Virus record (IMG/VR): IMGVR_UViG_3300008448_000114
Coordinates: 1 to 53,958 of that record
Origin: a virus
Lineage: Duplodnaviria; Caudoviricetes
Length of the DNA stretch: 53,958 bases
Reading direction: 5' to 3' (one strand)
A program made the position numbers and the translations under genes. The stretch's first letter is position 1; every line of letters starts with the position of its first letter. Below are positions 7,901 to 41,010 of this stretch, in pieces. The notes beneath the pieces are model-generated. The model ran no database searches. It saw only the letters and a program-made list of their open reading frames with translations, and was not told where the DNA came from.

Positions 7901-7957
7901 AATAGCCTCCATAAAAAGAGGCTATTTATATAAACACTTTCTATTACTGACCCATGT
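7901..7957 (-). ncRNA. Cassette A: 3'-UTR hairpin RNA of the giant gene
   Basis: Minus strand AATAGCCTC-TTTTTATG-GAGGCTATT, preceded by an arm complementary to cassette D. Confidence 0.4.
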
Positions 7958-10900
7958 TTACCTTCCTCCACCACCTCTACCGCTACCACCTCTTCCTCTT
8001 CCGCTTCCGCCACCTCTTCCACTACCTCCGCGGCTTCCTTTTTTACCTCCACTTTCTCCAGGCTCAAAAAACATCGTAAATCCTCTGCGCGTTTTCTTTT
8101 CTTGTTTTCTTTCTTCTTGAACAACCTCAGGCCTTTGCTCTTTAAGTATTTTAGTTCCAATATTTCTTAGGTCTCCACTCACCATATTTAAGAAAAACCC
8201 GAATTTCCCACCTATCATCATATTGGCAAATATGTACCCGTAAGCAGTAAGCCCTGCTGCAATAGCCGTCTCTTTGCTGTCAACTTTAGTGTCTTCACCT
8301 GATGCAGCATAGTATCTGCGTATATCGTTAACTGTTGTAGATAACCCGTGAATTGCAGATATTCCCGAGAACGAATTAACCAAATCTTCCCATCCCTTTG
8401 TTGGCTCTTCAGCACTATAGAAAGCTCTTATTGCCTCGTCATACGTCTTGCCTCCATAAATCTCAATAGGTCTTACGTTGTACATATTAAACCAAGACGC
8501 TTCTTTCTGCCTCATCTGCATCATAGCCTTTTTCCTTTGACGCTTATCCATCGTCAATAACCTCTCAGTAGCACCTTCTTTGTACATGTAAAATGCTGCC
8601 ATCCCTAATGCTGTCCTCCAAAAGAAACTTGTTTGAGGGTCTATTGCTGTTGACGCTATGCCATTAATTATAACTTCATTTACAGCTTTACTTTTAGCTT
8701 TAAGACCAGTCTTTATTGTTTCAATATACTTGTCCCATCCCTCTTTCTTGTCAAGTTCTTTAATCTTGTTTTCAACTGCTTTTGGGTCGTCATCATCTCC
8801 TGCCGCAGCATATACCGCTGCTGCCGTGCTTAGATACAGCACACCCATGTAAGACCTGAAAATAGAATAGGTTATTGACGGAACTATACCCTCAAGGACA
8901 GCCCTTGTTAAGTACTCGGCTCTTTTACCTAAAGAAAGGCCGCTTCTAGTTGAGAAGGCAAGCTTTATGTATGAGTTATACAACTGATGCTGGGTAGTTG
9001 GATACCCTTGAAGAAACCCTGTTAGAATAGCTAAAGGGTTATCTTTTGCAAGAGATATTTTACGTTTATCAGTATCAAACATATTCCTGATTCCTCTACC
9101 TAAGAACGGAGCTAAAAGCTGTTTTCTAAGAGGCTGCCTTGTAAATGAAGGCAAGGAGAATTGTCTGTCAGTAAACGAATCGGCTACCGAAGAAGCTTGA
9201 AGTACAGCATCCATATTAGATGCTCTGTAAACGCCTCTCTCATCTTTAAACTTTTGATGGTCTAAATACTCGCCTGTTATACGCTTAAACGCTTCCTCAA
9301 ACCTTGACATCCACCCGTGTTTCTTAACAGCCATATCCTGCCATGACGCTACTCTTTGCTGTCTTTGTAATTCCTCAGGAGTTTTCTTAAATTCATACAG
9401 GAAGTTATCAGCATACAAAGACATTACCTTATAGACAGGAGAGCCTGTCAAGTTAGCTATCTCTACATAGTCGTCCCATTTGTACGTTCCTGTATCTGTA
9501 GTATATCTTGATTTTTTAGGAGAAAGAAGTTGCAATATCTGATTTCCAAACTTTTTATTTTCAAAACCTAATGCAGACGTAAGTTTTCCAATATTTGCAG
9601 GGAAGTCGGCAAACAGCTGTCTTGTTACAGATATAAGCCATACCCTTGCAGCAAACGACTGAGCAGAACTCATCAGCCTAAAAGTATATCCAAAGTCATC
9701 ATTTACTACCCTTTCATTATGTGACAGATTAGCCTTAAGTCTTTCTGTAAGATTTTTATCAACACCTTCAAGATACGCAGCAGAGAACTCATTAACATCC
9801 TTAGCTGTCTTTACATCGTTGATAGCATCACCAAGACCTTTTATCTGCTGAAGGAATGGCATTACCTCTACCATTAGATTCAATGCCTTCATATTATGAA
9901 GGAGGACTTTGTTTGCGTCAAGGTCTATCGTTCCAGTCTCTCCTGACCGTGATATGGTCTGCCCCTTATCAATACCAAGATTTGAGAACTGGCCATTTAG
10001 GTACGCCATAGGGTCTGTTACCTCTGTTACTGTCTTATCCCCGTAAACTCTTATTGGGAAATAGTTTTTAACAGAAGCTCCCATATTGCCTACTATAACC
10101 TGTGCAGCCTCAAATGTTTCTCTATTTTGATTGATATGCTCTCTCCATCCGGCTAATCCTTCTTTTTGCTTATCTGTAAGCAAGTCCATAAGCTTACCCT
10201 CTGTCAGGTCTTTAAGCGTAGTTGTGCCTCCATTCGTAAGGGCAGCATAAGCTATCGCATCCATAAACTTATTGTTGTTTCCTTCAAGAGATTTAAAGGA
10301 TACGCCACCCTTAGTGAAGTAATCGAACATCGTACCTTCCATGAACGTTACCCCTTTCTCTCCAGCCTTAACTTCAAATATGTTCCTCTGAAGAACTCTG
10401 TCAATAATCTGAGCAGGGTTATTTGAGATATGGTCTATCTGATGGGCAACAATAGCTGCCATCCTTACCGATATATCATTCAAGAATGAAGCAGCACGAC
10501 CTTCTCTTAATTTGTTCCTAAGACTCATTCCAAGTATTGAGCCGGACACATCGTATGTCTTCAGAACTTGACCTATCGCCTTTTTGATGGTTGCATGGTT
10601 GCTTTTATCAGAAAACGCAATCATTGCCGTTTGAAGCTGACCAAGTTTTGATTGAGTCTTAACCATAGCGGCATCAATAGATGCAGCCATAGGGCCAAAG
10701 ATTTCTCTTTCAAGGTATCCCATATTAAGGCGGTCAAATTCGTTATACAACTCGTAATCAAGTGCTGTTATCTTTAGAAGGTCTAAATTACGAGATATGG
10801 CATCAGCCGAAGGTGTTGCTCCCTCTACATCAGTAAACGTTCTTGCAAAGTTTCTGAAAGCATTTTGTACAAAACCTGTTAATCCTGTTGCTGTTATTTC

Positions 10901-13900
10901 ATTTCTTCTTGCAGCAATTTCAGTACCCCACTTGTATCCACCATCTCTTTGTTTCCATCTTAATGCTTTAACATACTCGGTATATACCATATTGCTATAG
11001 TTTCCATAGTCGTACACCTGAGATAGCGCAGACGACAGGCTAAGCATATTTGCCGGACTTAAATTGCTTAAGTAATCATCCGACAGAGACGTCATAAAGC
11101 TAAGGAACTGCTGATATAGCACTCCGTTTGGTATTTTATTTCTTATATCGGAAAGCTCATCTGCTAGCTCTGTTTTTATCTTACCTACAAGAGCTGTTGT
11201 TTCTATTTTAATATCCTGCTCTTTATCAGCAATTATTCTGTTTATATCCCCTAAGTCTGTAAGCATCAGTACACCATACTGTTGCATGATGTCTGCTTGT
11301 TGCTGTGGAGTAAGCGCGGATATATTGTTCTTTCTTTCTTGTACATCTTCAACAGCTTTTTTAAGCTCCATCATCTTCTTGTAGTCAAGCATTGACAAAG
11401 TCTGCGTATTAGCCTTATTTATAAGGTCTTTTATTTTAGTCAACAGACTCTTATGCTCGTCGGCTATTTTTTGCTGATTAGACGGAGATATTGAATTAAG
11501 TATATCTATCGCATCTTGTATTGACCCTAATTTTAGAGCAACAATATCTTTGATGTGTCCGTTTAGTTTTGACAATTCCTCAAGAGATGCACTGCTATCA
11601 GGAAGTTCAGATAAAGGGAATCCAAGTATAGCTTTTACCTTATCAAAATACTCTCCAGAATACTTTGTAGATGAAGCTGTTTCAAGTCTGTCAAATGACT
11701 TTTGCACATCAGCAAGAACTTTTTTTCTGTATGCTTTTTCTACGACTTTTGATATTTCAGTAGCTCCTTTATCTACTGCTGTCATTATATCGTCTCTTGA
11801 GAAAATATTATCATTTAAGTCTTTGATAATTGCTTTTATCTGCCCTGTAGTAAGTTGAGCTCCTCTTCCATATCTATTTTGGAAATCTTTAAGTATCAAC
11901 TTAACAGCATCTTCAATCTTTTTAGCTCTGTCTTTTACATCCTTTATAGCACGTATCTGATTGGATACAGCATTTTTAATCCATTGAGAACTGGTCATAT
12001 TAACCATATCCTCTCCTTCAAACATTTGTCTATTAGCAGCAGGGAATGAAGCCCTTACGGCATCAGAAGCGATAGCAGGAGCAAGGCTCATCATGTCTAT
12101 CCAGGACACTCCGGCAGGAACAGTTCCGTTTGCATACATCCTGTCAATGGATGCTTTTACCTGACCAAGTACGGTATCGTATGCCTGTTTTGCTGTAGTC
12201 TTTGTTCTGCTGCCTACATTTGCATTTGCTATATTTTGAGCCGCCTGATTTGCGCCAGTTACAATAGCTTGGGTGCTTGGGGACGCAAATGCTTGGCTTA
12301 TCCTGCGCTGTCTTGCTGCCGCTTGCTCTGCTATCTTGCGCTCATTATACGCCTCTCCTACATAATTCTCTATTTGCTTCTGTACAGCATTATTATTGAA
12401 CTTTCCTGTTGCATTTGCTATAACAGCAGCAGATACTTCTGATGTAGCTATAGTTCTTGCTTCTTCAAGTGTTCTGCCTTTAGACAGCTCTCTTTGCATT
12501 ACAGCATTAGCAAGGTCAATCATTTGAGACTTAAATGATGGCTCTTGCTGTCTTGCCATGAATTGAGTTTGCTGCTCTATCTCCACAGCGTTCTCATCAA
12601 ATACCACATAATTGGACCCTCTTGATGTTGCTGATGTTGCTCCACGAGATATGCTTTCTGCTGGATATTTTATACCATCAATCCCGTTTTCAAGAAGTAA
12701 TAATGACGCCTCCTTATCGCTACCAATAGTTCTAGACAACTGTAAATATATGTTTTCTCCAGTTGTTTTTAATCCTGGCGTGTCTTCTGTTTTAAATCTA
12801 TTTTTAAATCCATCAACTTTTTTATCTATCTTTTCAATTATATCATTAAATCCTTCCTTATCCCACTCCAGCCAATTATATTCAGATGGCTGTTTGCCTT
12901 TATGCAGTGTAACATCATATAGAGAACCTCCTTCTTTAATAGAATACCTGCCTGATTTAAAGTCGTTTATTACATCCTCAAGCGAGTTTAATCTATCGTT
13001 CTTTATCTCATCTGTCCATGAAGTGTCTTCTATTACTTGTTTATGGTCTTCTAGGCTTTTAAGTATTTTGTTTTTATCAAAACCTTGATAAAGCCCAACT
13101 GAAACTTTATAAAGTCCTTCTCCTTCATTATATCCTTTTTTATAAGCACCAATTGTCGCATACAATTCATCATCAACTTCTTTCCCATCTTTTAATAAAT
13201 TACTTGAAGATAATGTCCTCCTATAAGTTTCTGCAATATCTTTTACATCCGTAAAGTATAAACCCCATCCAAAAGCCTGCACTCCTTCGCCTGTTCCTAT
13301 CTTTTCTGTAGTAAACTTACCAAAGCTATAAGGGCTTCCGTGATATGCTTTTACCTCAAACAGCTTATCCCTGTCCGACATCTTATTGAAAGTAACAGCC
13401 TCTCCTGCAAGTAATGATGCGTTGGCTCGGTTAAGGAACTCATCAAGCGTAAGCAGGTCTAACTCTACCTTGCTAAGATTAAATATTCCTACATACTGAG
13501 ACAGCTTACCTATCAACCTCCTTAACCAGTTTCTAAACCCTTGCTTCTGCACCTCATTAAAAAACTGCTCTCCTCTGTCACCAATAGCGGTAGCCAAAGC
13601 CTCGTTCTCCATCTCTTCAGTAGATAATCCTTCATACAACGGGTCTGCTTGCAGCTTATCCATGTATTCACTATCACGAATCAGCTCACGACCACGATTG
13701 TAAACCTCAGGAGCAATCTCCTTAGCAGCATTCAACCACAGATGCCCGAACTCATGAATAGGCGTATTATAGTTAGCGTAGTCAGGATTCAGATACACGT
13801 CACCATTCAATACCCTACCATAAACCACACCACCCTTCGTCATCAGGTCCCTTGCAGCTTCATCTTTTAATGCTGCCTGGAAGCCTTTCTTATCCATTAT

Positions 13901-16900
13901 AACCTTGACATTAGGGAATGCTTTTTTAAGCCTATCTGTAAGCGTTTTAACGGCCTTTTTATTTGCTGTATTTGCAGGTGCGTTGGATTTGTTAATCGCA
14001 TCAATTAAGGCGTTTCTTGCCTCTACTACGCGATTATTTGCTTCTGATATGACAGGAGGTATAACAGGAATAGGAGCTGCGTAATTAGTTCCAGTCATCC
14101 ATTGTTTAACCTTGTCAACAACTTGTTGCCCCATCTGCCTAACAGCACGCTCTTCTCCTTCTGTTACCTGCTGAGCCAGTTCATCCATTAACTGAACTTC
14201 CTGACCAGGATTTATTGTCCTTGTATAGTTCTGTATTACGGGAGTATTGTCGGGGAGTCCTGTTATTTCTTGGACTGCTTGCTGCGCTTGGCTGCCGAAA
14301 TTGCGATTGCGAGCATCTGCTGCCTGCTGCGTGGTTTGCCCGACGCCCCCTTCTCCTTGCCCGATTTTTTGTTGTCCTTGCTCAACTCCCGTAGGTTGTA
14401 TGAGATTGCTTGGTTGACCGCCTTCTTGCTGCGGCCTTGTGCTGATTTCAGTGGCATATTGTTGTGAATTTAAGTAACGTGATTTTAATGTTTCAAGGTC
14501 ATTTAACCTTTGTGTAAGATTTTCTACATCTGCCATCCTGTTAGAGTAAGGCATATCATTCTGTAAGGCAAACTCATAATCTACTTTAGCCTTCTCTATC
14601 AGGTCTTTAGTGTTCTGTATTTTGGTAGCTAAAAACATTTCAGGATTAGATACAATAGACGCTTCATTAGCCCTAGCAGCATTGCTGTTCTTCTCATTAG
14701 CTACGTACAAATCCCTTAATCTGTTAGAGAAACTCATCCTGTCAATAGGAGTCATATCCACCTCTTCAGCTTGAGCTGTTTGCTTTTGTTCTTCTGTCCT
14801 TGCATCAAGGATGCCATTATTCCCTATCATCGTATCAGACAAGCCAAAATAGTCGTAGATAAGCGTCTTCATTTCAGTAGGCTCAATAGCAAACTGCTGT
14901 TCAGCATATTCTACATCATTTAAAGCCTTATCAGCGTTCTGCATATATGTCTCTATTACTTGAGCAGACGCTTCAGGAGACACCTGTCCGTTCTCTACCA
15001 TTGTGCTTATCTCCTTAGCCTTAACAATATTATCAAGAGCTATTGTCCTTTGTTGCATCGTAGTTTTAGGACTAAAGTTCATCGACATAGCCGTAGGAAG
15101 CCATACGTCTCTTACCATCTCATAAACAGGAAGATTAAGCTCGGACTCTTTTATATTGCCGGACTCTACCTCCTGAATGACTTTAAGTATAGGTGCTATG
15201 TTTTCTTTTTGAGTAAGAGCAGATATAACAAAAGCCTCTTCCTTTGTAATGTTAAGTTCTTTGTTTTTGACAAGCTGTTTCCTTATCTCCTCTTGTGCCG
15301 TATTCCTGTTCTTCATATTTTGGGCAAGTTTTGTACCTCCCCTAAATATGGCAGATGTGCCTATCATTGTAATCAACATATCAAGACTCTGCTGTGCCGT
15401 AAATACCGTAGGATTAAACGTAGCATTCGTCATTGTGTTGAACGTGCTTTGCAATATTGCATTGCCTTTATCTGCAACCTCTTCTTCTAAATATTCAAGA
15501 GAGCCTGACTTTAAAACCCTTCCTGTTCTTTTTGCAAATAACCTGGCATACTCTTTAAATGCTTGAGCCCTTGTTTGCGGAGACATGATACGCTTAATCA
15601 AGTCTTTCGTAAGAACAGACTTACCCCTTCTTAATCCAAGAAGAGATGTTTCTCTTGTAATCATTTCGGAGAAAAATTCAATCCCATTATAAAGCTGAGA
15701 ATAAACTATCTGTTCTATCCCCGTTAATCCAGCATCAGCAGCTTCTCTCATGGCTCTACCTGTTCCTGTTGCAGCAAGATACGCATATCCTCCTGCCGGT
15801 CCACCTGCGATAAAAGCTCCTGAAAATGCCAGCATTTGAGGAAGGGCTTCTCCAATTTGTCCTACAATCTTTCCAGCATAACTATCAGCCTCTATATTTG
15901 TTTCAATCCTATTTTTATACTCTCTTATTGATGCTGATACGTTTGCAGCATTAGGGTTGTATCCACTCCAGTCAAAAGATGAAAGCTTATTGCCTGTTTC
16001 GCGAATACCTTCCATCATCCCTCTTATAGTATTTATAGACTTAATAGCAAATATTATATTTTTAGGAGTGCTTTTATTAAGTGTAGTTACATCCTGCGTT
16101 AATGGTGACAGCAAAGGAAAGCTGTACATATTAGTGTCGGTAAACTTGCTATTGTAGTTATCGTCAATCTCATGAAGTCGGTTTAACACAAATTTGCCTC
16201 TTTCGCTAAAAAGAGCACTTTCGTTAAATATCTTTAAACTTCCATTGTAAGAGTTTACCTTCTTTTCAAAGTCAGGCATATTCTCACTCAAAAATGCTTT
16301 AAGTTCTTTTTCAGGGAAAAGACTTTTAGCTCTTTTAGCTACCTGGTCAAGTTTTAATAACTGCTCATTTGTGCTTTCTATAACCTCTGGATTATTCAAC
16401 ATCAAATCCTTACCGGTAGTGTTTAAGAACTCAATATCGTCTGGCTTAAGGTCTGCATATCTATCTTTGTAGTTGCTCCCTTTCTCCATAAGGAACGACT
16501 TAAGTTTAATGTATCTTACAGCATCTCTAACGTTCTTATCATCGCTATTTTCAAGTGCATTGTATCCGTCATTTAACTCTTTAAGCGCAACTGTATATCC
16601 TGACTGATTATTTATCTTAAGTATTCCTGCTTCTATCAATGACTGGCTTATTTCAAGGTCTATTTTAGCGTCTTTAAAACCGCCTATAACTCCTTCTACT
16701 TCAGGAAGGAAATCTTTTAAAGTAGCATATATTGTTTCAATATCCTTGTTGTCAAGTTTTGTTTTAGCGGCATCTACAAGACTTGCCATGCCCTCTATGC
16801 TGTTAAGATACATGCCCTTTCTTCCGCCTGCCTCATCAAGTATCTGTTGCATAGCAGGTATAAGTTGAGGATTCTTTTTTACCTCAAGAGCAAGAACACC

Positions 16901-18337: not shown

Positions 18338-18341
18338 AGAA

Positions 18342-18349
18342 CAAATATA
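18342..18349 (-). promoter_or_regulatory. Bacteroidota-type -7 box, probably leaderless transcript
   Basis: TATATTTG-TTCT-ATG directly before the giant gene. Confidence 0.6.
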
Positions 18350-18399
18350 AGAATTGTTAAGAATATAGTATATGGATTATTTAAACACAATGGAGGTTT

Positions 18400-18720: not shown

Positions 18721-18730
18721 GACCACAATT

Positions 18731-18830: not shown

Positions 18831-18836
18831 CTAACA

Positions 18837-27356: not shown

Positions 27357-27371
27357 ACACCAAAGATAAAA

Positions 27372-27421
27372 ATAAAAGGCCACTGTAGAAACAGCAGCCT
27401 AAACCTAAAACATGAAAAAAT
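27372..27421 (-). ncRNA. Cassette B: anti-start-codon sRNA candidate with hexaloop terminator
   Basis: Minus strand TTTTTTCATGTTTTAGGTTT-AGGCTGCTG-TTTCTA-CAGTGGCCT-TTT. Confidence 0.5.
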
Positions 27422-27439
27422 CAAACTTTATATCAACAC

Positions 27440-28414
27440 TTATTCAGAAACTACGTTTTTAAGGGTTTCGTAAAATTCGTTAGCTTCCTTCGTTTTTGTC
27501 ATCGCAAACTCGGTAATAGACTCATACGCCTTCTTACCCAAAGGAATCTCACAAATCACCGCACCATCCTTCCAGCAGGCATATCCTTTCTTCGTAGATA
27601 CATCAATATGCCCATCGTCAATCCCTTTCTTTACAAAGAACTGAACTTTGGAGATAGTGGTTCCGGCAGACTTCATGAAAGCGTCAGGATTAGCACCGGC
27701 CTTATTAGCGTACTCTACACGTACTTTAGCTATCGTTTTCTGCTCTCCGTACTCGTTTGTCATACCAATGCCTAAGTACTGGGCATGAATCATCATATCC
27801 TCTACAGAAGCGTTCATAGAGAAGTTAATAGCCCTTAATCTTGCTTCTTCTTTTTTCAGCTCATTAGATTCGTTTTCTGCTGTATTTACAAGGGTATATC
27901 TTGCTTTCTTATTACGCATACGGTTCTCCTTCTTATCGTAATCGTCGCTGTTAAGTAAGAAGTTCAACAGCGTTCTATTGGTACGAGGAACGCGCAGTAT
28001 CCCATTGTTAAAGATAATATCCTGCTTGTTACGCTGGATGTACTGAGGAGTAAACCCTTCCTGCTCATCCATCCAAATAGAACTTGCTCCACGGATAAGA
28101 CGAATCGTTCTTACGGAGTTGCTTTGTACGTCAAATACAGGCATCTCATTCACCAAAGACTCATAAGACTTAGGCTTAACATCAGATGGCAATAACAGCT
28201 TAAAGACGTACATATCCGGCTCTTTCTGTTGCACCTTAATCTTTTCTTCTGTCCTCTTAATCATGCGTTTTAGCTGTAAAGAATCATCATCTTCAAATTC
28301 TTTAATAGTAGCTTGAGAGGTTGTTCTCTCTTGAGTAACAGCACCTGTGCTGTCATCAAATGCGTTCAATACGGGTAGTTGAACTTGTTGTTTTACCTGT
28401 TTTTTCTCTGACAT
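27440..28414 (-). CDS. Conserved protein downstream of the capsid gene (crAss-like head module)
   Basis: IRLIRGASSIWMDEQ...IIFNNGILRVP...LLNFL. Start at MSEKK, after TATATTTG at 28438-28431. Confidence 0.6.
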   Translation of the reverse strand: MSEKKQVKQQVQLPVLNAFDDSTGAVTQERTTSQATIKEFEDDDSLQLKRMIKRTEEKIKVQQKEPDMYVFKLLLPSDVKPKSYESLVNEMPVFDVQSNSVRTIRLIRGASSIWMDEQEGFTPQYIQRNKQDIIFNNGILRVPRTNRTLLNFLLNSDDYDKKENRMRNKKARYTLVNTAENESNELKKEEARLRAINFSMNASVEDMMIHAQYLGIGMTNEYGEQKTIAKVRVEYANKAGANPDAFMKSAGTTISKVQFFVKKGIDDGHIDVSTKKGYACWKDGAVICEIPLGKKAYESITEFAMTKTKEANEFYETLKNVVSE

Positions 28415-28440
28415 ATTACTTTGTTTGATACAAATATATA

Positions 28441-28500
28441 AAAAAGCCCTCAATTTAAAAAAAGAGGGCGATGATTAACTCTAAACAAAACTTTATGAGA
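28441..28500 (-). ncRNA. Cassette C: stand-alone anti-start-codon sRNA candidate
   Basis: Own TATATTTG box (28512-28505), then CTCATAAAGTTTTGTTTAGAGTTAATC, hairpin GCCCTC/GAGGGC and TTTTT. No ORF. Confidence 0.55.
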
Positions 28501-28527
28501 TACGCAAATATACGATTATATACGAAA

Positions 28528-28586
28528 CAAAAACCCCCGAGTATAAACAAGGGGGGCCAGTAATAGAAAACAGGTAAATCCAATGC
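28528..28586 (-). ncRNA. Cassette D: sRNA candidate
   Basis: Box variant TAATTTTA (28596-28589), arm GCATTGGATTTACCTGTTTTCTATTACTGG, hairpin CCCCC-TT-G-TTTATA-C-TC-GGGGG, TTTTT. Confidence 0.5.
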
Positions 28587-28645
28587 TGTAAAATTACTCC
28601 TATATCAACTATTATTTCAATCTATCAATCAACACATAGCAAAAG

Positions 28646-30056: not shown

Positions 30057-30082
30057 TTTTGTGAGATTTTAAATTTTAAAAA

Positions 30083-31201
30083 TTAAGTGTTACCAAAAAA
30101 GAAGTTTACCATTTCATCTTGCGAAGCTTGCTGCTCGTCTGGTAAACGCCTACTTACCGATTCCTGGAAGTTAGCGTTCTTCAAACCCTTAACGAAAAAT
30201 GACTTTGCCTGATTTACAGCCTGACTTACGTGTGCTTCAACAATCTTATCAAAGTTCTCCAACACGTAGAGGTCGTGAGCTATGGACTCTGTATCAAAGT
30301 CTCCATTCTCGTCAATGTAGCGCGGCATAAAGTAGTCCTGTAATGTAAAGTTCTCCATCTTATCTTTCAGTGAAGCCTTTTCGTTGGCATCAATGACATA
30401 AGTCGTATTGAACTCTAACTCACTGTCCTTGTACTTGCTTTCAAAACCTACAATTTCATCAATGGTTGCAGGAATCGCTTGCATGTACTTGTCTCTGAAC
30501 TCCTTGATTGCCGCCTCTTCAGCTTCATTTGAAACCGCCTGTTGCTGTTGAGGAGCGCTCGTTTGAATATCCGGTAAAACTATCTCCTGCTTTTTGCTGT
30601 TCAAGAACTCTTTCGCCTCCTTTAAGTCCTTCTTCTTCAAACGCTCCATGTTGATTTTCTCACGCTCAAACTTCTTCTTCTCTTTTGCAATCTCCTCTGG
30701 AGTGTCTAAATCCTCATCAATATCCGGCTCTTGAACACCGTACTTAAAGTTGAACTCATCATCTACTTCCTCGCTTGACAGCTCAGGGTTTTCTTGCCTT
30801 ATCTTAAGTTTAAGCACATCGTCTGCGCTCATCTTATCAAGTGAAGCAAGTTGTTGCTGTTGCTGATACACGTTTACTACCTCATCTATCTTTCCTTCCT
30901 TTAAGTACTCGAATACTTTCTTTGCAGTATCATTAGCAAAATTAATCTCTTGATTAACAGGTTTATCAGCTAATTGAAGTAATTCATCAACACTTTTAAA
31001 TTTTCCGCCTGTTCTTTCTGCTAAAAGGGCTTCAAAGTCTATACCTGTTGAAGAATCATTGTTTGCTGTTTGCGAATCAGAAACTGATTGCTGTTGTTGT
31101 TGAGGTTCTGCCGGCTGAGATTGTGGCTGTCCTTGCGGTGCTTCGCCCATCTCACCAGACGTGATTAAATCCTCAAACATCGAAGATGTTGAATTACTCA
31201 T
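30083..31201 (-). CDS. Capsid scaffolding protein
   Basis: Acidic, Q-rich coiled coil immediately upstream of the capsid gene. Confidence 0.7.
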   Translation of the reverse strand: MSNSTSSMFEDLITSGEMGEAPQGQPQSQPAEPQQQQQSVSDSQTANNDSSTGIDFEALLAERTGGKFKSVDELLQLADKPVNQEINFANDTAKKVFEYLKEGKIDEVVNVYQQQQQLASLDKMSADDVLKLKIRQENPELSSEEVDDEFNFKYGVQEPDIDEDLDTPEEIAKEKKKFEREKINMERLKKKDLKEAKEFLNSKKQEIVLPDIQTSAPQQQQAVSNEAEEAAIKEFRDKYMQAIPATIDEIVGFESKYKDSELEFNTTYVIDANEKASLKDKMENFTLQDYFMPRYIDENGDFDTESIAHDLYVLENFDKIVEAHVSQAVNQAKSFFVKGLKNANFQESVSRRLPDEQQASQDEMVNFFFGNT

Positions 31202-31221
31202 TGTTTTCTATTTTATTGTTA

Positions 31222-31787: not shown

Positions 31788-32081
31788 TCACCATTTTACA
31801 CGATTCGCCCAGTAGGCCGCGCTCATCTTTCCTTTATTGATATTACGTGCGTGTCTTGCTTTAAATGATGCTCTCTTTTTCTTCATGCGCTCAGACTCTC
31901 CAGCTTTAGGTTTGCCGGCAGTTTCTGCTCCTTGCTCCCCGAACCGTATTGTCTTTACTTGACTGCCTTCTTTAGCAACTACAATATGTGATTTCTTTGG
32001 ATGATTAGGAGTACGTTTAGGTTTATTATATCCCGATACTCCTGCTCTTTCAAGTCTTGAATCTTTCTTTATAAATGGCAT
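31788..32081 (-). CDS. Basic phage protein
   Basis: GYNKPKRTP.HP.KSH.V.AK...IRFG.QG...SFKARH...SAAYWA...KW. Confidence 0.7.
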   Translation of the reverse strand: MPFIKKDSRLERAGVSGYNKPKRTPNHPKKSHIVVAKEGSQVKTIRFGEQGAETAGKPKAGESERMKKKRASFKARHARNINKGKMSAAYWANRVKW

Positions 32082-32485
32082 ATTATTTAACTTTTTTAAC
32101 CAGTCTTGGTTTTGTAATAGTTTCGTAAAGTTCTCCTTTTCTTTTTTGTTTTGGTATTATTCTACTTGCAAATTCAGCAGCTAAAGCTTGGGCTGCTGGT
32201 ATATAAGGAGTTGCAACTGAAGCTATAGGCATCATTGACATCATTGCCCCACCAACTCCAACAGCTAAAGACCTTAATAATCTTTCTTTTTTCTTTGCTG
32301 TTTGCTGTTTAATAAATTCAGGAGTATTAAAATCAGCACCATCTTCTTCAGCCTGTCTTTTTTTAGCCTCAAATAATGATTTTGCTTTTGCCTTTTCTAC
32401 ATCTGTTCTGGTATCTTGACTAATTGTAGCCATTTTACCACCACCATTATTTTTTTTCTTTAATGGCATATTATTTAACTTTTTT
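32074..32485. repeat. 24-bp direct repeats flanking the 128-aa gene
   Basis: AATGGCATATTATTTAACTTTTTT at 32074-32097 and 32462-32485. Confidence 0.85.
32083..32469 (-). CDS. Basic protein (MPLKKK start) with a hydrophobic segment
   Basis: 128-aa ORF coupled to its neighbours. Confidence 0.6.
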   Translation of the reverse strand: MPLKKKNNGGGKMATISQDTRTDVEKAKAKSLFEAKKRQAEEDGADFNTPEFIKQQTAKKKERLLRSLAVGVGGAMMSMMPIASVATPYIPAAQALAAEFASRIIPKQKRKGELYETITKPRLVKKVK

Positions 32486-32633
32486 CTTCCATTTTAGAAT
32501 CCTCTTCCTCCTCATCTTCATCTTCTCCCATATCCTCCATCTCTTTCAGAGCTTTATATAAGGCCATAAATTTAGCCATTTCTAAAGCTGTTAAGCTATA
32601 CTTCTTGTCTTTGCTTTTTTTCTTTAATGGCAT
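32475..32633 (-). CDS. 52-aa protein, basic N-terminus and acidic C-terminus
   Basis: Hand translation MPLKKKSKDKKYSLTALEMAKFMALYKALKEMEDMGEDEDEEEEDSKMEEKS. Confidence 0.6.
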   Translation of the reverse strand: MPLKKKSKDKKYSLTALEMAKFMALYKALKEMEDMGEDEDEEEEDSKMEEKS

Positions 32634-32634
32634 A

Positions 32635-35025
32635 TTACTGATTTTGTTGTTGTTGCATCATTTGATTCTGCATCATTTGTTGTTGTGCTGCATCATTCTC
32701 ATCTACCATACCTTGTAGCTCATCTACCTGGTCAGGAGTAATACCTTGTTGTGCTAAAAACTCCATCTGAGCCTGTTGTTGCTGTTGTGCTAACGCCTGC
32801 TCTTCCATCTGCTTCTGACGAGCCTTCTCAGCAAAATACCCATCCACTATATCCTTCACATATCCAGTAAGTTCTTTACCCTCCTTGAATGACATCAACA
32901 GCACATCATGTACAAATTTCTGCATATTTTCGTCATTCTTAAATCTTGATGACGATTCATCAATCATTACCTGCATCTTAGCCTTAGCCTCCTCAATAGC
33001 AGCATCTGCCTGCATCTTAGCCTGTGCTGAACGTTCTTGTATCTGTGCGTTCATCTCCGAGTTCTGCTGAGCCTTCTGCATCTCGGTTTGCATGCGTTTG
33101 TTCTTAGCTCTTGTAAGATACAACTCCTGCAACTTCACATTGTCAAGCCTTCTGATTTTAAACGCATCATCAAAGTCAATCATGTTATTTGATATAGCGT
33201 TGTTTGTCATCGACTCAACATAAGCCTTTTCAACATCATCAGGAAGCATCTCTATCTTAAACTCAAAGAACATATTCGCAAGCTCTTTATTGCCGAAGAA
33301 CTCACGATACGCTGTACCACCATACACCACAGAATCATGAAGCAAGATGCCTATTTTCGAAAGCGTCTGCTCAGTAATCTCCAAATAAGAGTCATAGATA
33401 AAATCAGTAGCATTGTTAGATTCGCGGATTTGAGATTCTAAAACACCTAATCCCATCTTGGGATTAACACTTGAGCCTTCCCTGTATTCATTGATACCTA
33501 CCTCATCACGTATCTTAGCCACATAGAAATTATAGACCTGTATAGACGCATTAATTTGGTTAATATTACCAATATTTGGTAATTCATTAATCGGCAAAGA
33601 CCTTCTTTCACCATCCTCATCTACACTATTGTAATATATGTTACCAGTCTGGTCGTAAACCCTTTGAATCTCAAGAGGCTTGACTTGTCCTTGACCTAAA
33701 TCTACTTCCTTCAATCCGGATATGTCAACAGCAATACCAGATGGTCTCATCTTAGCTATTAGTTGCTGTATCTTCATGTGGGTAAGCGTAATCATACGAA
33801 CCGAAGAACTAATCCTTTCAGCAAGAGGGGTATTATTCATACCTATGTTATTAGGCATATACACCGAATAGCTGAAGTAAGCTTTAGACAGCTCTTTAGG
33901 ATTAGAAGGTCTAATCATAGGACTGTTAGGCTGGAACTTCAGCAAACGATTTGATTGAGGAAGATACACACCTGCGTATATAACCTCCATCTCTTTCTGT
34001 ATAACCAATTTATCCTCTCCTACGTTCTCAGGTCTTCCCTTCTTGCGTTCTACATACTTTCTGTTCTCCCTGTTCTTCTCTACCCAAAACATTGGTCTAA
34101 CGGTCTTCGCCTCAAAGAACAGCACCTCTATGGCATAATCGTCATAAGGTCTTGAACCAGGATTCATGTACTCATTCTTCCACTTAAACGTATATGGGCT
34201 AACGCAATCCTTAGATGTCTTAGCTATTTCAAATAGTTGTTCTTCTGTAAGTCCAAATCTCTTACGCAATTCGTACAACTTCATCGACTTACGATGCCCC
34301 ATAACTGACGCATCTGCCATATCGTTCCTCTCTGAATAAGAACAGAAAAAGTCTATCGGATTGATAGCTTCTACGATTACTGTTCCGTCTCCGTCAGCTC
34401 TTGTATAAGTGACTCCATATCCTCCATCTCTAATGTGGCAGAGTAGATTACGTTTAATGTCATTCCAGTTGTTGTTGTGCAGTACCATTGATGCACCTCG
34501 CTCCATGAGTATCTCTTCGGGAGTTCTGTAATCAACGTTGAAGAAGATGTCCAGTTCGTCATAACTTTCAGGTTCAAAAGTTTCTCTGTTTTTATACGTT
34601 CCTAATGCCTCATCAGCCATCTTATTAAACTCAGGCTCAAGCATACGGAACTCAGCCATAGCCTTATCATACTTCTTCTTTTTTATGCTAACAGGGTCAA
34701 CAGCAGTACATCTTGGCTTCTCTCCTCTTTTCATAAAACCACCAATAAGCACCTCCATGAATTTAGGTGCAATCATTGGAGGAGTCCAGTCAAGGTTGAC
34801 ATAAGACTGCTTGCCATCTATATTAAGAAACTGCATGTAGTCTCTCATGTCCTGCCTTCCTGTGGACAGCTTCATGTTCTTAGCTATCTCTACGTTTCTT
34901 TTCTCAAAGTATTCATTACTAACAATAGAATGAACATACTTAGCCATTTTCTCACCAAGTTCGGCATCAGAAACGCCATCCAGGTTGAGCTGAAACTGCA
35001 ATGTTGGATTATAAAATGGAGTCAA
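32635..35025 (-). CDS. Portal protein
   Basis: 796 aa after TerL; NLDWTP....PKF, YDQTG..Y, IRDEVGINE.REGS; Q/M-rich tail. Confidence 0.85.
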   Translation of the reverse strand: MTPFYNPTLQFQLNLDGVSDAELGEKMAKYVHSIVSNEYFEKRNVEIAKNMKLSTGRQDMRDYMQFLNIDGKQSYVNLDWTPPMIAPKFMEVLIGGFMKRGEKPRCTAVDPVSIKKKKYDKAMAEFRMLEPEFNKMADEALGTYKNRETFEPESYDELDIFFNVDYRTPEEILMERGASMVLHNNNWNDIKRNLLCHIRDGGYGVTYTRADGDGTVIVEAINPIDFFCSYSERNDMADASVMGHRKSMKLYELRKRFGLTEEQLFEIAKTSKDCVSPYTFKWKNEYMNPGSRPYDDYAIEVLFFEAKTVRPMFWVEKNRENRKYVERKKGRPENVGEDKLVIQKEMEVIYAGVYLPQSNRLLKFQPNSPMIRPSNPKELSKAYFSYSVYMPNNIGMNNTPLAERISSSVRMITLTHMKIQQLIAKMRPSGIAVDISGLKEVDLGQGQVKPLEIQRVYDQTGNIYYNSVDEDGERRSLPINELPNIGNINQINASIQVYNFYVAKIRDEVGINEYREGSSVNPKMGLGVLESQIRESNNATDFIYDSYLEITEQTLSKIGILLHDSVVYGGTAYREFFGNKELANMFFEFKIEMLPDDVEKAYVESMTNNAISNNMIDFDDAFKIRRLDNVKLQELYLTRAKNKRMQTEMQKAQQNSEMNAQIQERSAQAKMQADAAIEEAKAKMQVMIDESSSRFKNDENMQKFVHDVLLMSFKEGKELTGYVKDIVDGYFAEKARQKQMEEQALAQQQQQAQMEFLAQQGITPDQVDELQGMVDENDAAQQQMMQNQMMQQQQNQ

Positions 35026-35056: not shown

Positions 35057-37093
35057 CTATCTTATGTTACTAATGTCATACGTCTGAACGAACCCCACAG
35101 AGTCCTTCTTTTCTTTCAACACATTCCGTACGTCACCAGCTGCCGCAACAAGCGCAATCATAAAAGCAACGGTAATATCCGACTTGGTTCTGTTGAAATG
35201 GTCGTACTCAAGCATATCCTCAAATATTTCCTTAAAGAACATTTTTTCAGAATAATTATCAACCCAAAACTGGGCCAGCTCAAGCTGTTTATTCAGCGAG
35301 AACGGGTCTTTTGGTGATACACCCCACGTCTGCACCGTCTTGGCTTTCCTGTTAGGGTCAAGCACCGACTTAGGCGTTTTAGTGATAAAGTTCTTATGCC
35401 CTTTGTCAATAAACCACTCAAAATAATCATCATTGGCGTTCTCGTACGTAGCCTTACACCCGAAGTAGTGACAAGCATACAACACCTCTGTATGAAACAG
35501 ATTCTTCGTTTTAGGTCTTCCTACATACATAGCCACCGGCATGCCCGTGTTCTCCGGGTCGGTAGGGTCGTACTGCTCATATACCACAATAACGCCATTA
35601 GAACCCTTACCAACAATAATAGTAGAGGCAAAGGGGTCAACTCCTATCTTATACTGATGCGTGTTGGCCGGCTTCTTACCTGAATCATCATAAATAATTC
35701 CATTAGGGAATCTAGGTTGCTTTAGTAGCAGCCACTTGCCATTCGGGTCATCTCGGTAGTCCACCTTATTTTTTTCATCCCATCCAAACGTAACCCTACG
35801 TATTGATGGCTTATTATCTTTAAGATAATCTAACTGCTGCCTAATCATTTGGATATTAAAGAAAGACTCGGACTCATCAGCAGCAAATGCCTCTTCCTCA
35901 TTAAATGGCATCATCCGTTTCTCCTCCAATCTCATCTCATCATCCTCTATCTTTTCTATCCGCTGACGCAAGTATTCCTTTGCCCCAATCCGTATCTCTT
36001 CAAGCGTAAGCGTAGTGGTCTCTTGCAAAAACTTCTCCTGGTCTTTAGTAGGAGTATCTATGACAGATATGCCATATTTATCAATAAATCCTTCGTACCC
36101 GTCGTATGCCGGTTTAAAGTATCTGTACAGCCCTGATGGAGTTGTCTTATGGAGCAACTGGTTTGATTCGTTCCATAGCGTCTTATATCCTGCTCCTCCG
36201 TCTTTCATCTTGTTAACGGTAGATGGCAGTTCAGCAAACCCTACCTTCCTACTACCTTTCTCCAGCGTCTTTCTCACAATCGACCAATACCGTTGTATAG
36301 GTACATCTGTCGGGAACTTACCGCCCTCATCGACTAACAGCCTTGTATTTCTTTTAGAGTCATAGCTATTTAGCTTTGTATTTTTAAAATCTATCTGCGA
36401 GTTCAGCCCTTCCGGTTTCTCCCTGATAGATGTCTGCTGCTTCTTTTTAACCCTTGACACTTGTTTCATGAACCTAAGTATCTTTTCGGGGTCATCACCG
36501 GCTGCAATATCCGGCTTCATAAACAGCGGCAGGTTACGAAACGCATACACCACCATCTCCTTAAATACAGACTTGGCATCATCACCCGTTTTGGAAACAA
36601 TACCGCACTTGGCCTGCTCGGTAGTAGTGGCTGTATATAGCATATTGGAGGATGCCTGGGAGGTAGCACCTTCCCTACGTGACTTAACGCGTATCACTCC
36701 AAGAACATTAGAAGACTTCTCGCAGTGGTCGAGGAACAGATACCACCTCCTGTCGCAGTCGCGATACTGAGGCTTATCTCCATTTTCAAGGGTGAAATAA
36801 TTTAAGAAGTAGTAGTATTTACCGGTAATATAAGTAGGTTCTCCGCAGTTCAAGAACCAATGCCCATCACGACATTTGACAAGTTCTTTCATGATAAAGT
36901 CCCACTGCTTATCTGTCCATAGTGGGTTGCCATTAGCATCATACTCCAACTCATCAAAGTATTCGGGTATATCGGTATAACGGAAGTATTGTTCTTTGCG
37001 GCTGTACTTACAGTTCTCCATCGTGTACGCTGCCGGTTGTTTCGGCAGGGAGTACTGGATTCCGTACAAACTTACGCTTTCGTTTTTTTGCAT
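35057..37093 (-). CDS. terL: Terminase large subunit
   Basis: ITGKYYYFLNY, Walker-A-like KSRREGAT, Walker B LLVDEGGK, nuclease motifs IGVDP and YENA. Confidence 0.9.
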   Translation of the reverse strand: MQKNESVSLYGIQYSLPKQPAAYTMENCKYSRKEQYFRYTDIPEYFDELEYDANGNPLWTDKQWDFIMKELVKCRDGHWFLNCGEPTYITGKYYYFLNYFTLENGDKPQYRDCDRRWYLFLDHCEKSSNVLGVIRVKSRREGATSQASSNMLYTATTTEQAKCGIVSKTGDDAKSVFKEMVVYAFRNLPLFMKPDIAAGDDPEKILRFMKQVSRVKKKQQTSIREKPEGLNSQIDFKNTKLNSYDSKRNTRLLVDEGGKFPTDVPIQRYWSIVRKTLEKGSRKVGFAELPSTVNKMKDGGAGYKTLWNESNQLLHKTTPSGLYRYFKPAYDGYEGFIDKYGISVIDTPTKDQEKFLQETTTLTLEEIRIGAKEYLRQRIEKIEDDEMRLEEKRMMPFNEEEAFAADESESFFNIQMIRQQLDYLKDNKPSIRRVTFGWDEKNKVDYRDDPNGKWLLLKQPRFPNGIIYDDSGKKPANTHQYKIGVDPFASTIIVGKGSNGVIVVYEQYDPTDPENTGMPVAMYVGRPKTKNLFHTEVLYACHYFGCKATYENANDDYFEWFIDKGHKNFITKTPKSVLDPNRKAKTVQTWGVSPKDPFSLNKQLELAQFWVDNYSEKMFFKEIFEDMLEYDHFNRTKSDITVAFMIALVAAAGDVRNVLKEKKDSVGFVQTYDISNIR

Positions 37094-38745: not shown

Positions 38746-38790
38746 TGCTGTTTCTATTTGTCACAAATATAGGAAATTTTGTGACTAAAC

Positions 38791-38853
38791 AAAAACCCCG
38801 CCTAAAAAGACGGGGCGTGTGTTAACCAATTAAACAAACCAAACTATGAAAAG
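38791..38853 (-). ncRNA. Cassette E: 3'-UTR anti-start-codon sRNA candidate
   Basis: Minus strand TTTTCATAGTTTGGTTTGTTTAATTGGTTAA, then CCCCGTC-TTTTTA-GGCGGGG-TTTTT. Confidence 0.55.
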
Positions 38854-39393: not shown

Positions 39394-39418
39394 TTTTTTT
39401 TGTTTTTAAATTTTAATA

Positions 39419-40453: not shown

Positions 40454-40513
40454 TTTGTTTTTTTTGTAAATTTAAAACTAATCCAACCTATTTATCTGTC
40501 AATCCTTCAACAC

Positions 40514-40912: not shown

Positions 40913-40955
40913 TTAAAATGTTTTTACAAATATAATGGAAAATACTTTACCAAAT

Positions 40956-41010
40956 AAAAGTCCCCCCAAGTAGAAACAAGGAGGGAACAGCTTACTTTTT
41001 TATAGACACA
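40956..41010 (-). ncRNA. Cassette F: stand-alone sRNA candidate
   Basis: Full promoter TTTG-N20-TACATTTG, ~25-nt arm, hairpin TCCCTCC-TT-G-TTTCTA-C-TT-GGGGGGA, CTTTT. Confidence 0.55.

Follow-up and report, generated by a model that had tools for sequence, protein, structure and literature searches.

Terminator-promoter punctuation and two candidate base-pairing RNAs on the late strand of an uncultured freshwater phage

INTRODUCTION

What is the role of six hairpins (A to F) scattered along the late region of the minus strand of an uncultured freshwater phage? The initial annotation had taken them for one family of small-RNA cassettes, in which variable arms would block the translation starts of early phage or host mRNAs and a conserved hexaloop would serve as a protein-binding tag. 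We analyzed the whole stretch of 53,958 nucleotides (the window) and compared it with 12 metagenome loci and five whole relatives; the relatives G001 and G004 are incomplete contigs. The reading that we lean toward, with somewhat more confidence than doubt, is that the hairpins are terminator-promoter punctuation and that C and D in addition yield base-pairing RNAs directed at start regions of the phage's own genes.

Searches of phage records gave no match, and the host search found no relative in the genome collection. An Rfam scan of the whole window returned no match at gathering score, in agreement with the annotation's remark that no described family was recognized. The only hit, to ctRNA and on the capsid-gene terminator, was subthreshold (22 bits versus 50).

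RESULTS

Six intrinsic terminators, each followed by a promoter box

All six minus-strand hairpins were found where they had been placed. Each has a GC stem and a T-run on the minus strand, the anatomy of an intrinsic terminator, and all six are, judging by these features, ordinary Rho-independent terminators. The terminator scan caught five of the six, the D loop being beyond its loop limit; D was located by a separate scan. The sites and the neighboring capsid-gene terminator are as follows.

Site A, 7901..7957, minus strand: 3' UTR and terminator hairpin of a 3459-aa gene; hairpin in the scan, 7926-7901
Site B, 27361..27439, minus strand: gene X 3' UTR, hairpin 27400-27377 (same limits in the scan), apex GTTTCTAC, T-run, -7 box
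D cassette, 28440..28512, minus strand: -7 box TATATTTG at 28512-28505, predicted start ~28500, arm 28500-28470
D hairpin and tail, minus strand: hairpin 28469-28446 (own scan; 6 pairs, 12-nt loop, six T behind), T-run 28445-28440
C cassette, 28529..28596, minus strand: variant -7 box at 28596-28589, predicted start ~28584, arm 28584-28557
C hairpin and tail, minus strand: 28556-28534 (28553-28534 in the scan), T-run 28533-28529, apical TTGTTTATACTC
Capsid-gene terminator, 28672-28646, minus strand: loop CAAAA, without the apex motif
Site E, 38764..38853, minus strand: 3' UTR and terminator of a 179-aa gene (hairpin in the scan, 38816-38795), then box TATATTTG at 38771-38764
F cassette, 40927..41020, minus strand: head of the late strand; box TACATTTG at 41020-41013, predicted start ~41008, A-rich arm, hairpin 40986-40961 (40983-40962 in the scan), apical TTGTTTCTACTT, T-rich tail

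Fold z-scores against 200 shuffles were -2.5 (A), -3.7 (B), -1.6 (C), -2.8 (D), -3.0 (E), and -1.9 (F); in A, the T-run starts 5 nt past the stem. Three terminators stand in tandem behind the highly expressed capsid gene. RNA contigs from four freshwater libraries, which as assembled contigs cannot reveal small RNAs, covered 28711-30840, the capsid genes only; none lay over 27336-28671 and none ran past ~28711 from the capsid gene, which we take as a weak hint.

The Bacteroidota -7 box, TAnnTTTG at positions -12 to -5 (consensus from PMC7366714 and PMC9723704), follows all six hairpins on the same strand. At A it reads TATTTTTG (7897-7890) and precedes a gene starting at 7874. At B it reads TATCTTTG (27368-27361) and lies 4 nt ahead of ATG 27356, so that a leaderless mRNA is predicted. 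F is followed by another box (TATATTTG, 40934-40927), that of the first late gene. Window-wide, the 8-mer shows no enrichment (66 occurrences versus 55 expected), and the argument therefore rests on position and conservation rather than on count.

Three orphan units

Protein genes end at A, B, and E. The other three sites, C, D, and F, are orphan units, each laid out as a promoter box, a ~25- to 30-nt unpaired arm, and a terminator. A promoter and a terminator without a conserved ORF were found together at C, D, and F; A and E are gene 3' ends, as is B, which has a possible promoter in one clade. The predicted RNAs of C (~56 nt), D (~61 nt), and F (~57 nt) are noncoding, and folding left the arms mostly unpaired. 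The upstream boxes, TACATTTG for F, TATATTTG for D, and the variant TAATTTTA for C, are kept in all aligned relatives; the imperfect C box of the window is TATTTTTG in one clade. The variant box that had been given to D thus belongs to C. Short frames do exist where none had been seen (a 42-aa TTG frame across C-D and a 30-aa plus-strand frame), but neither is kept: relatives carry indels not in threes, and one clade has a stop at codon 3.

Among the other sites, the B hairpin and apex are kept in all seven distinct relatives seen, whereas the B arm differs between clades, one of which has a perfect upstream -7 box (TAAATTTG). The A loop TTTTTA is kept in two of three distinct relatives, and the A arm is not conserved. 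The E hairpin is missing in contig L008. F is present in L008, G003, G004, and G005 with differing stems and the same apex.

A shared apex on a subset of terminators

The loop letters were as described: TTTCTA in B and F, TTTATA in C, and TTTTTA in A, D, and E. A six-base loop closed straight by the stem occurs in B and E but not in A, C, D, or F. In C and F, the six letters lie inside a 12-nt apical region with one closing G-C pair, which RNAfold draws as G-C, U-A, and then a tetraloop; the A loop has 6 to 8 nt and the D loop 12. The element is better described as an apex G-UUUNUA-C than as a hexaloop. It is kept over covarying stems in B, C, F, and the D of some relatives and is missing from A, E, and the window's D. 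The loop conservation that had been expected among relatives was therefore seen for B, C, and F but not for E (kept in two of five clades, different in three) or the window's D, and the six do not form one uniform family. As had been noted, the motif is also missing from the capsid terminator, the 18763 terminator, and the early-strand terminators of the window.

The apex (GTTTNTAC) caps 3 of the 12 compact terminator-like hairpins in the window. Six related genomes carry it on 19 of their 78 such hairpins, whereas none of 86 hairpins from 67 more distant phage loci has it (Fisher 2e-7, with orthologues that are not independent). A covariance model built from C alone recovered F (24 to 35 bits) and D (20 to 30 bits). 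Protein-gene terminators, including an early-strand terminator in G001 and G002, also carry the apex, which speaks against an sRNA-specific handle. Other strong terminators of the genome lack it, so it is not needed for termination as such. A fixed apex over variable stems, the boxB-type trait, is present; no boxB/N- or Q-type antiterminator protein was recognized in the subset of proteins scanned. The apex is probably a lineage-specific, selected trait of a terminator subset.

The C arm is complementary to four start regions

The C arm is the best-conserved noncoding stretch: its mean pairwise identity is 0.93, whereas the adjacent spacer reaches 0.55 and the opening 12 codons of gene X 0.76. 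The arm is missing from metagenome contig L122. The C stem covaries, two pairs having changes on both sides, and one relative has GTTTTCAC in place of the apex. Four start regions are complementary to the arm, three of late genes and one of an early gene, and perfect runs of 10 to 14 nt recur at these same places in several genomes.

Gene X start, 28392..28438, minus strand: promoter box 28438-28431, ATG 28414
T1, 28403-28392, minus strand: gene X, codons 4-8; complementary to the C arm middle
T2, 38748..38759, minus strand: 5' UTR of a 212-aa gene (ATG 38745); pairs with the C arm 3' block
T3, 31202..31212, minus strand: 11 nt abutting ATG 31201 of the 372-aa gene that precedes the capsid gene; complement of the C arm 3' block
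T4, 52733..52742, plus strand: in the 5' UTR of early gene 52754; complement of the variable C arm middle

C lies 150 to 160 nt upstream of gene X. In two clades, T1 pairs perfectly over 12 to 13 positions; in the third, 20 of 22 positions pair, with two bulges. Two C-T1 pairs have changed on both sides. T2 gives 13 perfect pairs in G001, 14 in G002, 12 in G003, and 8+3 in the window. The 11-nt T3 match is perfect in the window, G003, G004, and G005, and codons 3-6 of gene 31201 match the C arm 5' block in relatives. At T4, the window shows 10 perfect pairs and G003 shows 14, while G005 has one mismatch and one wobble there.

When 34 orthologous start regions were ranked by duplex energy, +52754 came top (-18.2), followed by 31201 (mean of -16.6 kcal/mol over 5 genomes), 28414 (-16.4), and 38745 (-15.7), with the next at -13.2. 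Four groups thus reached -15.5, compared with at most one in 150 column permutations of the arms. Matching changes occur in three arm/target haplotypes. In the 12-pair helix, 87.5% of cells pair, compared with 42 to 62% after sliding, and 5 of 500 shuffles reached the score. Swapping partners showed the cognate one to be best in all three arm classes, although by columns the G001 arm binds the window target better than the window's own arm, and the G005 T4 site fits a window-type arm better than G005's own. Independent compensatory events are few, amounting to three haplotype classes, and the targets are A-rich, low-complexity sequence. Within the window alone, with 56 start regions, the C duplex energies were no better than those of shuffled arms (P 0.23).

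The D arm matches an early-gene leader

D keeps the core of its arm, while its hairpin sequence and loop vary by clade. The arm is the complement of a leader common to early genes.

Early-leader motif ACTCTAAACAAA, 45300..45311, plus strand: complementary to the D arm
Other early-leader motif sites, 43524-43533, 49433-49443, and 51134-51143, plus strand

On the early strand, D-complementary 10-mers numbered 5 in the window (P 0.02), 8 in G003 (P <0.002), and 8 in G005 (P 0.006), versus ~1.3 expected; no excess was seen on the late strand or in G001 and G004, both incomplete contigs. The top three conserved partners of D are all early genes, a result reached by 0 of 100 permutations, and the best partner varies between genomes. 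Within the window, over the same 56 start regions, D energies were no better than those of shuffled arms (P 0.53).

Arms A, B, E, and F gave no phage target signal above shuffles, and B, E, and F had no conserved partner in the comparative ranking. The proposal that the arms are antisense to start regions is therefore supported for C, through its compensatory changes, and for D, through its early-leader complement, but not for the other four. The C arm is unpaired, complementary to starts, and conserved or covarying; the same applies more weakly to D. Against shuffled controls, arm matches failed in single-genome energies and exceeded them in the comparative tests of C and D. Early phage mRNAs fit as targets of D, but the best partners of C are three late genes and one early gene. 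Arms B, C, D, and E of the window do contain the CAT followed by T/G-rich sequence that had been read in them; relatives of C do not keep the CAT, however, and the C pairing flanks the start codon instead of covering it as had been supposed.

DISCUSSION

In the arrangement that we propose, transcription of the late minus strand would proceed in short units separated by the six terminators, each of which gives way at once to a host sigma-A-type promoter (-7 TAnnTTTG); at several sites, the terminator T-run plus G may double as the -33 TTTG. C, D, and F would give noncoding RNAs. C is most likely a base-pairing RNA: its 3' block would pair with the A-rich stretch that directly precedes the AUG in genes 31201 and 38745, its middle with gene X (ATG 28414) at codons 4-8 and with early gene 52754 in the 5' UTR, and its 5' block with codons 3-6 of gene 31201. 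Such pairing within the ribosome landing zone would reduce translation initiation. The partner of D is most likely the leader common to several early genes, whose translation D would damp once late promoters fire. From the observed hairpins, boxes, conservation, complementarity, and covariation, we infer discrete C and D RNAs that would act in trans and repress.

A simpler account, which we find rather unlikely, would have terminators and promoters only, with the orphan units as tandem terminators shielding gene X and the first late gene against strong transcription from upstream, and the complementarity as a by-product of T/G-rich spacers facing A-rich, Shine-Dalgarno-less leaders. The terminator anatomy and downstream box at six of six sites fit it, as do the three tandem terminators behind the highly expressed capsid gene, the single-genome duplex energies of B, C, D, E, and F, which are no better than shuffles, and the want of a conserved partner for B, E, and F. 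It leaves four observations unexplained: the C arm is better conserved than adjacent coding sequence, four orthologous start regions rank ahead of the rest in the cross-genome comparison, arm and target change jointly, and the upstream -7 box of every orphan unit is kept in all relatives. Plus-strand features, with the arms as early-type leaders plus ATG that drive tiny ORFs or antisense-to-late transcripts, seem very improbable: D does resemble such a leader plus ATG on the plus strand, with a 30-aa frame, but it is the minus strand alone that has T-runs behind the hairpins, no plus-strand TAnnTTTG box lies near 28400-28700, and indels break the plus-strand frames in relatives.

C could instead act in cis, as a leader. 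In RNA reading through from the capsid gene or the C promoter, past both terminators, its arm would fold onto gene X at codons 4-9 and mask the start, so that only own-promoter transcripts would be translated; the apex would mark these terminators for a phage or host factor that lets polymerase through. In all three clades, minimum-energy folds of the read-through RNA (202 to 216 nt) do pair the arm with the start of gene X, and beyond the orphan units the apex also caps terminators that stand right in front of gene blocks (B, F, and the early-strand one of G001/G002). We nevertheless regard this as improbable: three of the four conserved C partners lie 3 to 24 kb away, one on the opposite strand, and are therefore out of reach in cis; every apex-bearing terminator has its own promoter behind it, making read-through unnecessary; and the scanned subset of proteins yielded no antiterminator. 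We give a similarly low probability to the original idea that all cassettes are riboregulators, with a dedicated protein on the loop and arms against early phage or host mRNAs. The apex is invariant over differing B, C, and F stems that covary among orthologues, it is lineage specific (19/78 versus 0/86), the C-only model finds F and D, and B combines a clade-variable arm with a fixed hairpin. Yet the apex is missing from A, E, and the window's D and present on protein-gene terminators, it is replaced by GTTTTCAC at the C site of one relative, no phage target above chance emerged for arms A, B, E, and F, and the protein partner of the loop is only putative.

Our preferred reading, punctuation with C and D as base-pairing RNAs, has parallels in known systems. 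In Bacteroidota, the sigma-A promoter combines -7 TAnnTTTG with -33 TTTG (PMC7366714 and PMC9723704). The six sites share with Bacteroidota terminators and promoters a stem-loop plus T-run and then a -7 box at the expected distance; they differ in that a subset has the apex G-UUUNUA-C and in that three of the terminators end units without a gene. In Bacteroides thetaiotaomicron, GibS and other intergenic sRNAs combine their own promoter and an intrinsic terminator with a long unstructured 5' seed, which pairs around the start codons of Shine-Dalgarno-less mRNAs (PMC7366714). C and D resemble GibS in placing a 5' seed on start regions ahead of an intrinsic terminator; unlike GibS, they are phage encoded, much shorter (~56 to 61 nt), in tandem, and predicted to target the phage's own genes. 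No sequence or Rfam relation to GibS-type sRNAs was found for C and D.

The lambda late leader consists of PR', 6S RNA, and tR', and the nut/boxB hairpins of lambda have a fixed loop over variable stems. F likewise heads the late genes with a promoter, a short RNA, and a terminator, and the hairpins here share with boxB a fixed loop over variable stems. Unlike in lambda, a second promoter lies behind F, and read-through is therefore not required; unlike boxB, the hairpins are themselves terminators, and no Q- or N-like protein was identified in the subset scanned.

The gene for c4 RNA shares a block with its target and lies directly ahead of it; cut from a longer transcript, the RNA pairs through loop sequences and controls an antirepressor for immunity. 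Processing and loop pairing of this type do not apply to C, which has its own box and terminator, pairs through a linear 5' arm, and has several partners among structural-region genes. In P1 and P7, c4 acts by pairing at the ribosome-binding region, and from one related phage to another its sequence differs in step with that of the target (PMC12197685). By analogy, and in mode of working only, with no sequence relation, C is like c4: it lies upstream of a target within one block, is complementary to codons 4-9 of that gene, and occurs with this target in three matching haplotypes.

Genome layout and probable host

The window (53,958 bp, 40% G+C) is an entire virus record. Its late genes lie on the minus strand, from about 40,900 downward, and recombination and nuclease genes lie on the plus strand from about 41,080. 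PHROG matches identified the following late genes.

35057-37093, minus strand: terminase large subunit
32635-35025, minus strand: portal
28692-30056, minus strand: capsid-like gene, among virion structural proteins

One large protein gave a weak match to a crAss-type muzzle domain, and ARAGORN detected no tRNA or tmRNA in the window. TAnnTTTG, found upstream of gene starts, is described in two reports as the -7 box of the primary sigma factor of Bacteroidota, located at -12 to -5 (PMC7366714, PMC9723704). As start codons are also preceded by A-rich leaders devoid of Shine-Dalgarno sequences, the phage host is very probably a member of the Bacteroidota. No match to the window was obtained in a collection of phage records, with either the DNA or the capsid protein, and no terminase relative was found in a genome collection, so that search did not yield the host. 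In public RNA data, nine runs contain 5-18% of the sampled words. In four freshwater RNA libraries originating from different studies, contigs align at 88-100% identity with the capsid gene and its upstream neighbor (28711-30840), suggesting that this clade of phages occurs, and is probably active, in fresh water. The RNA contigs cover that segment and one piece at 26299-26460, and none falls on the stretch with hairpins C and D and gene X described below. As assembled contigs cannot reveal small RNAs, ends or strands, these data are neutral with regard to such RNAs.

Several regions outside the hairpins deserve mention. A single open reading frame (ORF) of 3459 aa (7958-18337) encodes a protein with a repeated, Gly/Arg-rich C terminus and a weak match, below the cutoff, to the ADP-ribosyltransferase domain of polyvalent proteins. 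A 537-nt noncoding gap (18338-18874) lies between this giant gene and a strong terminator (18763-18735) that is conserved with its flanks in two of the five whole related contigs (G001 and G002). The roughly 700 nt at 41080-41770 have no convincing ORF, a higher G+C content, repeated GCTGTTA and GTTAGC words and no Rfam match; this region is possibly an origin or a structured RNA. At 32063-32648, three successive small genes have near-identical start regions (TAAATAATATGCCATTAAAGAAA), which form direct repeats with spacings of 388 and 164 nt. Lastly, three genes starting with ATGGCA, including the capsid gene, have in common the leader TTAAAATTTAAAA...AAAA (30057-30082, 39394-39418 and 40454-40476, minus strand) without a -7 box, which may represent a common translation signal for abundant proteins.

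Six hairpins, two kinds of units

The initial annotation had described six minus-strand hairpins (A to F) in the late region. We found all six, each with a GC stem followed by a T-run. Five are listed by a terminator scan, and D, which has a 12-nt loop, was recovered by a separate hairpin scan. All are more stable than shuffled sequences (z scores of -1.6 to -3.7). A -7 box is present on the same strand 3' of every hairpin (6/6), and thus the basic anatomy is a terminator followed by a promoter. Three sites also have a -7 box upstream.

7897-7890, minus strand: -7 box after A
27368-27361, minus strand: -7 box after B
28512-28505, minus strand: -7 box after C, which is also the upstream box of D
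28438-28431, minus strand: -7 box after D
38771-38764, minus strand: -7 box after E
40934-40927, minus strand: -7 box after F
28596-28589, minus strand: upstream box of C, a variant box
41020-41013, minus strand: upstream box of F

A, B and E come immediately after the stop codons of the 3459-aa gene, of the gene directly downstream of C and D (gene X, 27440-28414) and of a 179-aa gene, respectively. Half of the reported "family" is thus ordinary terminator-promoter punctuation, and annotators would best treat A, B and E as such. C, D and F have their own upstream -7 box, contain no gene, and their arms, the stretches 5' of the hairpins, fold mostly unpaired. On these grounds they are predicted to yield RNAs of about 56, 61 and 57 nt, respectively. 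Small peptides were considered, as 42- and 30-codon frames run across C-D and others lie near F, and were rejected because these frames are not conserved in relatives.

No Rfam family matched the window. We built a covariance model from eight C sequences, whose E values are rough. C orthologues scored 76 to 86 bits, followed by F (24 to 35 bits, E values of 3e-4 to 0.09) and D (20 to 30 bits), while E (19.9) and B (18.8) were close to noise. It follows that C, D and F have a common architecture.

Other observations concern the promoter boxes. Two -7 boxes, TATCTTTG and TATATTTG (27356-27368 and 18337-18349, minus strand), end exactly 4 nt ahead of an ATG. Given the -12 to -5 position of the box, the virion protein gene at 26670-27356 and the 3459-aa gene are predicted to have leaderless mRNAs; the arrangement at 27356 is retained in all relatives seen. 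GTGTTGA(N)ATAAA, in this form or slightly altered, immediately follows stop codons or terminators at 7937, 27439, 28633, 40513 and 41109 (minus strand) and at 41029 (plus strand), with no window-wide enrichment (11 versus 8.5). The copy behind gene X is the same in almost every relative. In one clade it leads into a perfect -7 box (TAAATTTG), which suggests a possible promoter extension.

A conserved apex on a subset of terminators

Six-letter loops had been reported for the six hairpins. The letters are present, but the loop is closed by a stem in B and E only. RNAfold resolves the conserved motif G-UUUNUA-C at the hairpin top, hereafter the apex, into a G-C pair, a U-A pair and a tetraloop. 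We surveyed it in the five whole related contigs, other viral loci and 12 metagenome loci. The apex is found in B of all seven distinct relatives seen and in seven of eight distinct C sequences, the remaining one having GTTTTCAC. It also occurs in F of four relatives (L008, G003, G004 and G005) with quite different stems, and on one early-strand terminator of G001 and G002. In D it is restricted to G004 and G005; it is replaced by GTGTTTAC in G003 and by other loops in the window, G001 and G002. The E loop is TTTHTA in two of five clades, and one relative lacks the hairpin; the A loop is TTTTTA in two of three distinct relatives. Therefore, the loop does not unite the six sites as a set, as had been proposed, and rather marks a subset of terminators.

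In a mechanical count of compact terminator-like hairpins, the apex was present on 19 of 78 in six genomes versus none of 86 in 67 phage loci that are less closely related (419 kb), with a Fisher P value of 2e-7 that is overstated because orthologues are not independent. Other strong terminators of the same genome lack the apex, indicating that it is not required for termination. Across the aligned C sequences, mean identity is 0.89 in the apical 12 nt versus 0.55 in nearby spacer, and the C stem covaries. This dispensability for termination, conservation and covariation argue that the apex is a real, selected and lineage-specific motif. Its possible roles include binding a protein, directing processing or marking a terminator for regulated read-through. 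Loop-loop pairing with UAGAAAC-type leaders fits only the B and F loops of the window and fails with the other fourth letters of relatives, and it was rejected. A likeness to CRISPR repeat handles was dropped, as the window has no repeat array.

A stretch resembling a tRNA T arm (GGTTCGATTCC between complementary flanks) lies at 43480-43510 on the plus strand, upstream of the early ORF 43543, where ARAGORN predicts no tRNA; at the same position, G001 and G002 have a terminator with a GTTTCTAC apex.

The C arm and its putative partners

Of the noncoding sequence that separates the capsid gene from gene X, the C arm is the best-conserved part, with an identity of 0.93 versus 0.76 for the first 12 codons of gene X. 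Perfect complements of the arm were searched genome by genome, and the same places recurred.

T1, codons 4-8 of gene X, 150-160 nt downstream of C: 12 nt in the window; 13 nt in G003-G005; 20 of 22 with two bulges in G001 and G002
T2, 5' UTR of gene 38745: 13, 14 and 12 nt in G001-G003; 8+3 in the window
T3, 11 nt directly before the AUG of gene 31201: window, G003, G004 and G005
T4, 5' UTR of early gene 52754: 10 nt in the window; 14 nt in G003

At T3, the conserved 5' block of the arm is additionally complementary to codons 3-6, so that pairing would bracket the AUG. When 34 orthologous start regions were ranked by mean duplex energy with the cognate C arm, the T4, T3, T1 and T2 genes came out on top (-18.2, -16.6, -16.4 and -15.7), followed by the next at -13.2. 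When the arm columns were permuted 150 times, identically for all genomes, no more than one group reached -15.5.

Three variants of the middle of the C arm occur, and the codons of gene X vary in step with them despite differences in the encoded residues. On a 12-pair helix, 87.5% of the cells are paired versus 42-62% when the register is slid, two pairs are changed on both sides, and the score was reached by 5 of 500 shuffles; every unpaired cell comes from the clade with a bulge-shifted register. When arms and targets were swapped, all three C-arm classes bound their own target best; column-wise, one foreign arm outdoes that of the window. These comparisons involve only three independent arm/target haplotypes, and the targets are A-rich.

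A version in which the C arm acts in cis, within a read-through RNA and on gene X only, is feasible: when that RNA was folded, the arm lay on the gene X start in three clades. The other three partners are out of its reach.

Protein-based scans for further C loci returned only the same six IMG/VR contigs, and a DNA pattern for the arm returned these and two chance matches without a hairpin. In one metagenome contig (L122), D and gene X are intact, but the C arm is missing, as is the 5' half of the hairpin, and another coding sequence adjoins the remaining half; C is therefore dispensable unless this contig is chimeric. Where the early strand begins (41029-41072, plus), just behind a GTGTTGA motif, a C-arm-like TTGGAT is followed after 6 nt by TTTTCTGTTACT. 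The C covariance model matches there weakly (15.7 bits, E value of 5). The sequence may be a counterpart of C on the early strand, or a chance resemblance.

The other arms

The conserved core of the D arm is the reverse complement of a motif found in several early-gene leaders. Complementary 10-mers on the early strand numbered 5 versus 1.4 in the window (P = 0.02), 8 versus 1.3 in G003 (P < 0.002), 8 versus 1.4 in G005 (P = 0.006) and 5 versus 1.9 in G002 (P = 0.08), and none were found in the incomplete contigs G001 and G004. The excess is confined to the early strand. The three best conserved partners of D are all early genes, a result reached by 0 of 100 permutations. The best partner and its register vary between genomes, and pairing is weak in the window (-9.4).

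The arms had been proposed to target start regions. The B, E and F arms gave no signal above shuffles and no recurrent or conserved partner; for E this test is weak, as its pattern caught two genomes only. The B arm is strongly divergent between clades, although its hairpin is fixed. F is an orphan unit. In the window alone, the A arm was the sole one to beat shuffles (100 of 100), by matching the 5' UTR of ORF 41081 through an 11-nt motif present in exactly three copies, in A, in C (inverted) and upstream of F. This match was set aside because the A copy is not conserved in relatives.

Discussion

In this computational analysis, the initial annotation holds in part, both as an observation and in its interpretation as a riboregulatory system. 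The shared apex is a real clade-specific signal. C, with good comparative support, and D, with moderate support, are candidate phage antisense RNAs that would form a new family of a known general kind. Pairing at -15 to about +30 would lower translation initiation. Repression is the likely effect, since this is within the region that the ribosome must occupy; a duplex over the first few codons would keep the 30S subunit from binding.

A larger scheme can be envisaged, although we consider it improbable: tandem late-strand small RNAs would run part of the expression program, with C tuning genes of the structural region and D shutting early genes via their common leader, and the sequence-specific apex, which these RNAs would have in common with selected terminators, would dock a dedicated RNA-binding factor, be it a chaperone, a stabilizer or a terminator-specific antiterminator. 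If true, this would represent a guide-plus-handle arrangement in Bacteroidota, a phylum that to our knowledge has no Hfq.

Base-pairing small RNAs are barely explored in Bacteroidota. In the portion of the full-text literature covered by our searches, we found no description of such RNAs from phages of this phylum, and the terms "Bacteroid" and "Flavobacter" are absent from a 2025 review of phage small RNAs. Should C and D prove real, the phage would use antisense pairing to control how its own late and early genes are translated, in hosts that do without Shine-Dalgarno sequences. Nature provides three compensatory arm/target variants, and the apex is a concrete bait for an RNA-binding partner in Bacteroidota, where the identification of RNA chaperones is still under way.

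C and D are most economically interpreted as short base-pairing RNAs of the kind described in Bacteroides. They resemble GibS of Bacteroides in having their own promoter, an intrinsic terminator and a long unpaired 5' seed directed at start regions, and among phage RNAs the mode of working of C resembles that of c4 of P1 and P7.
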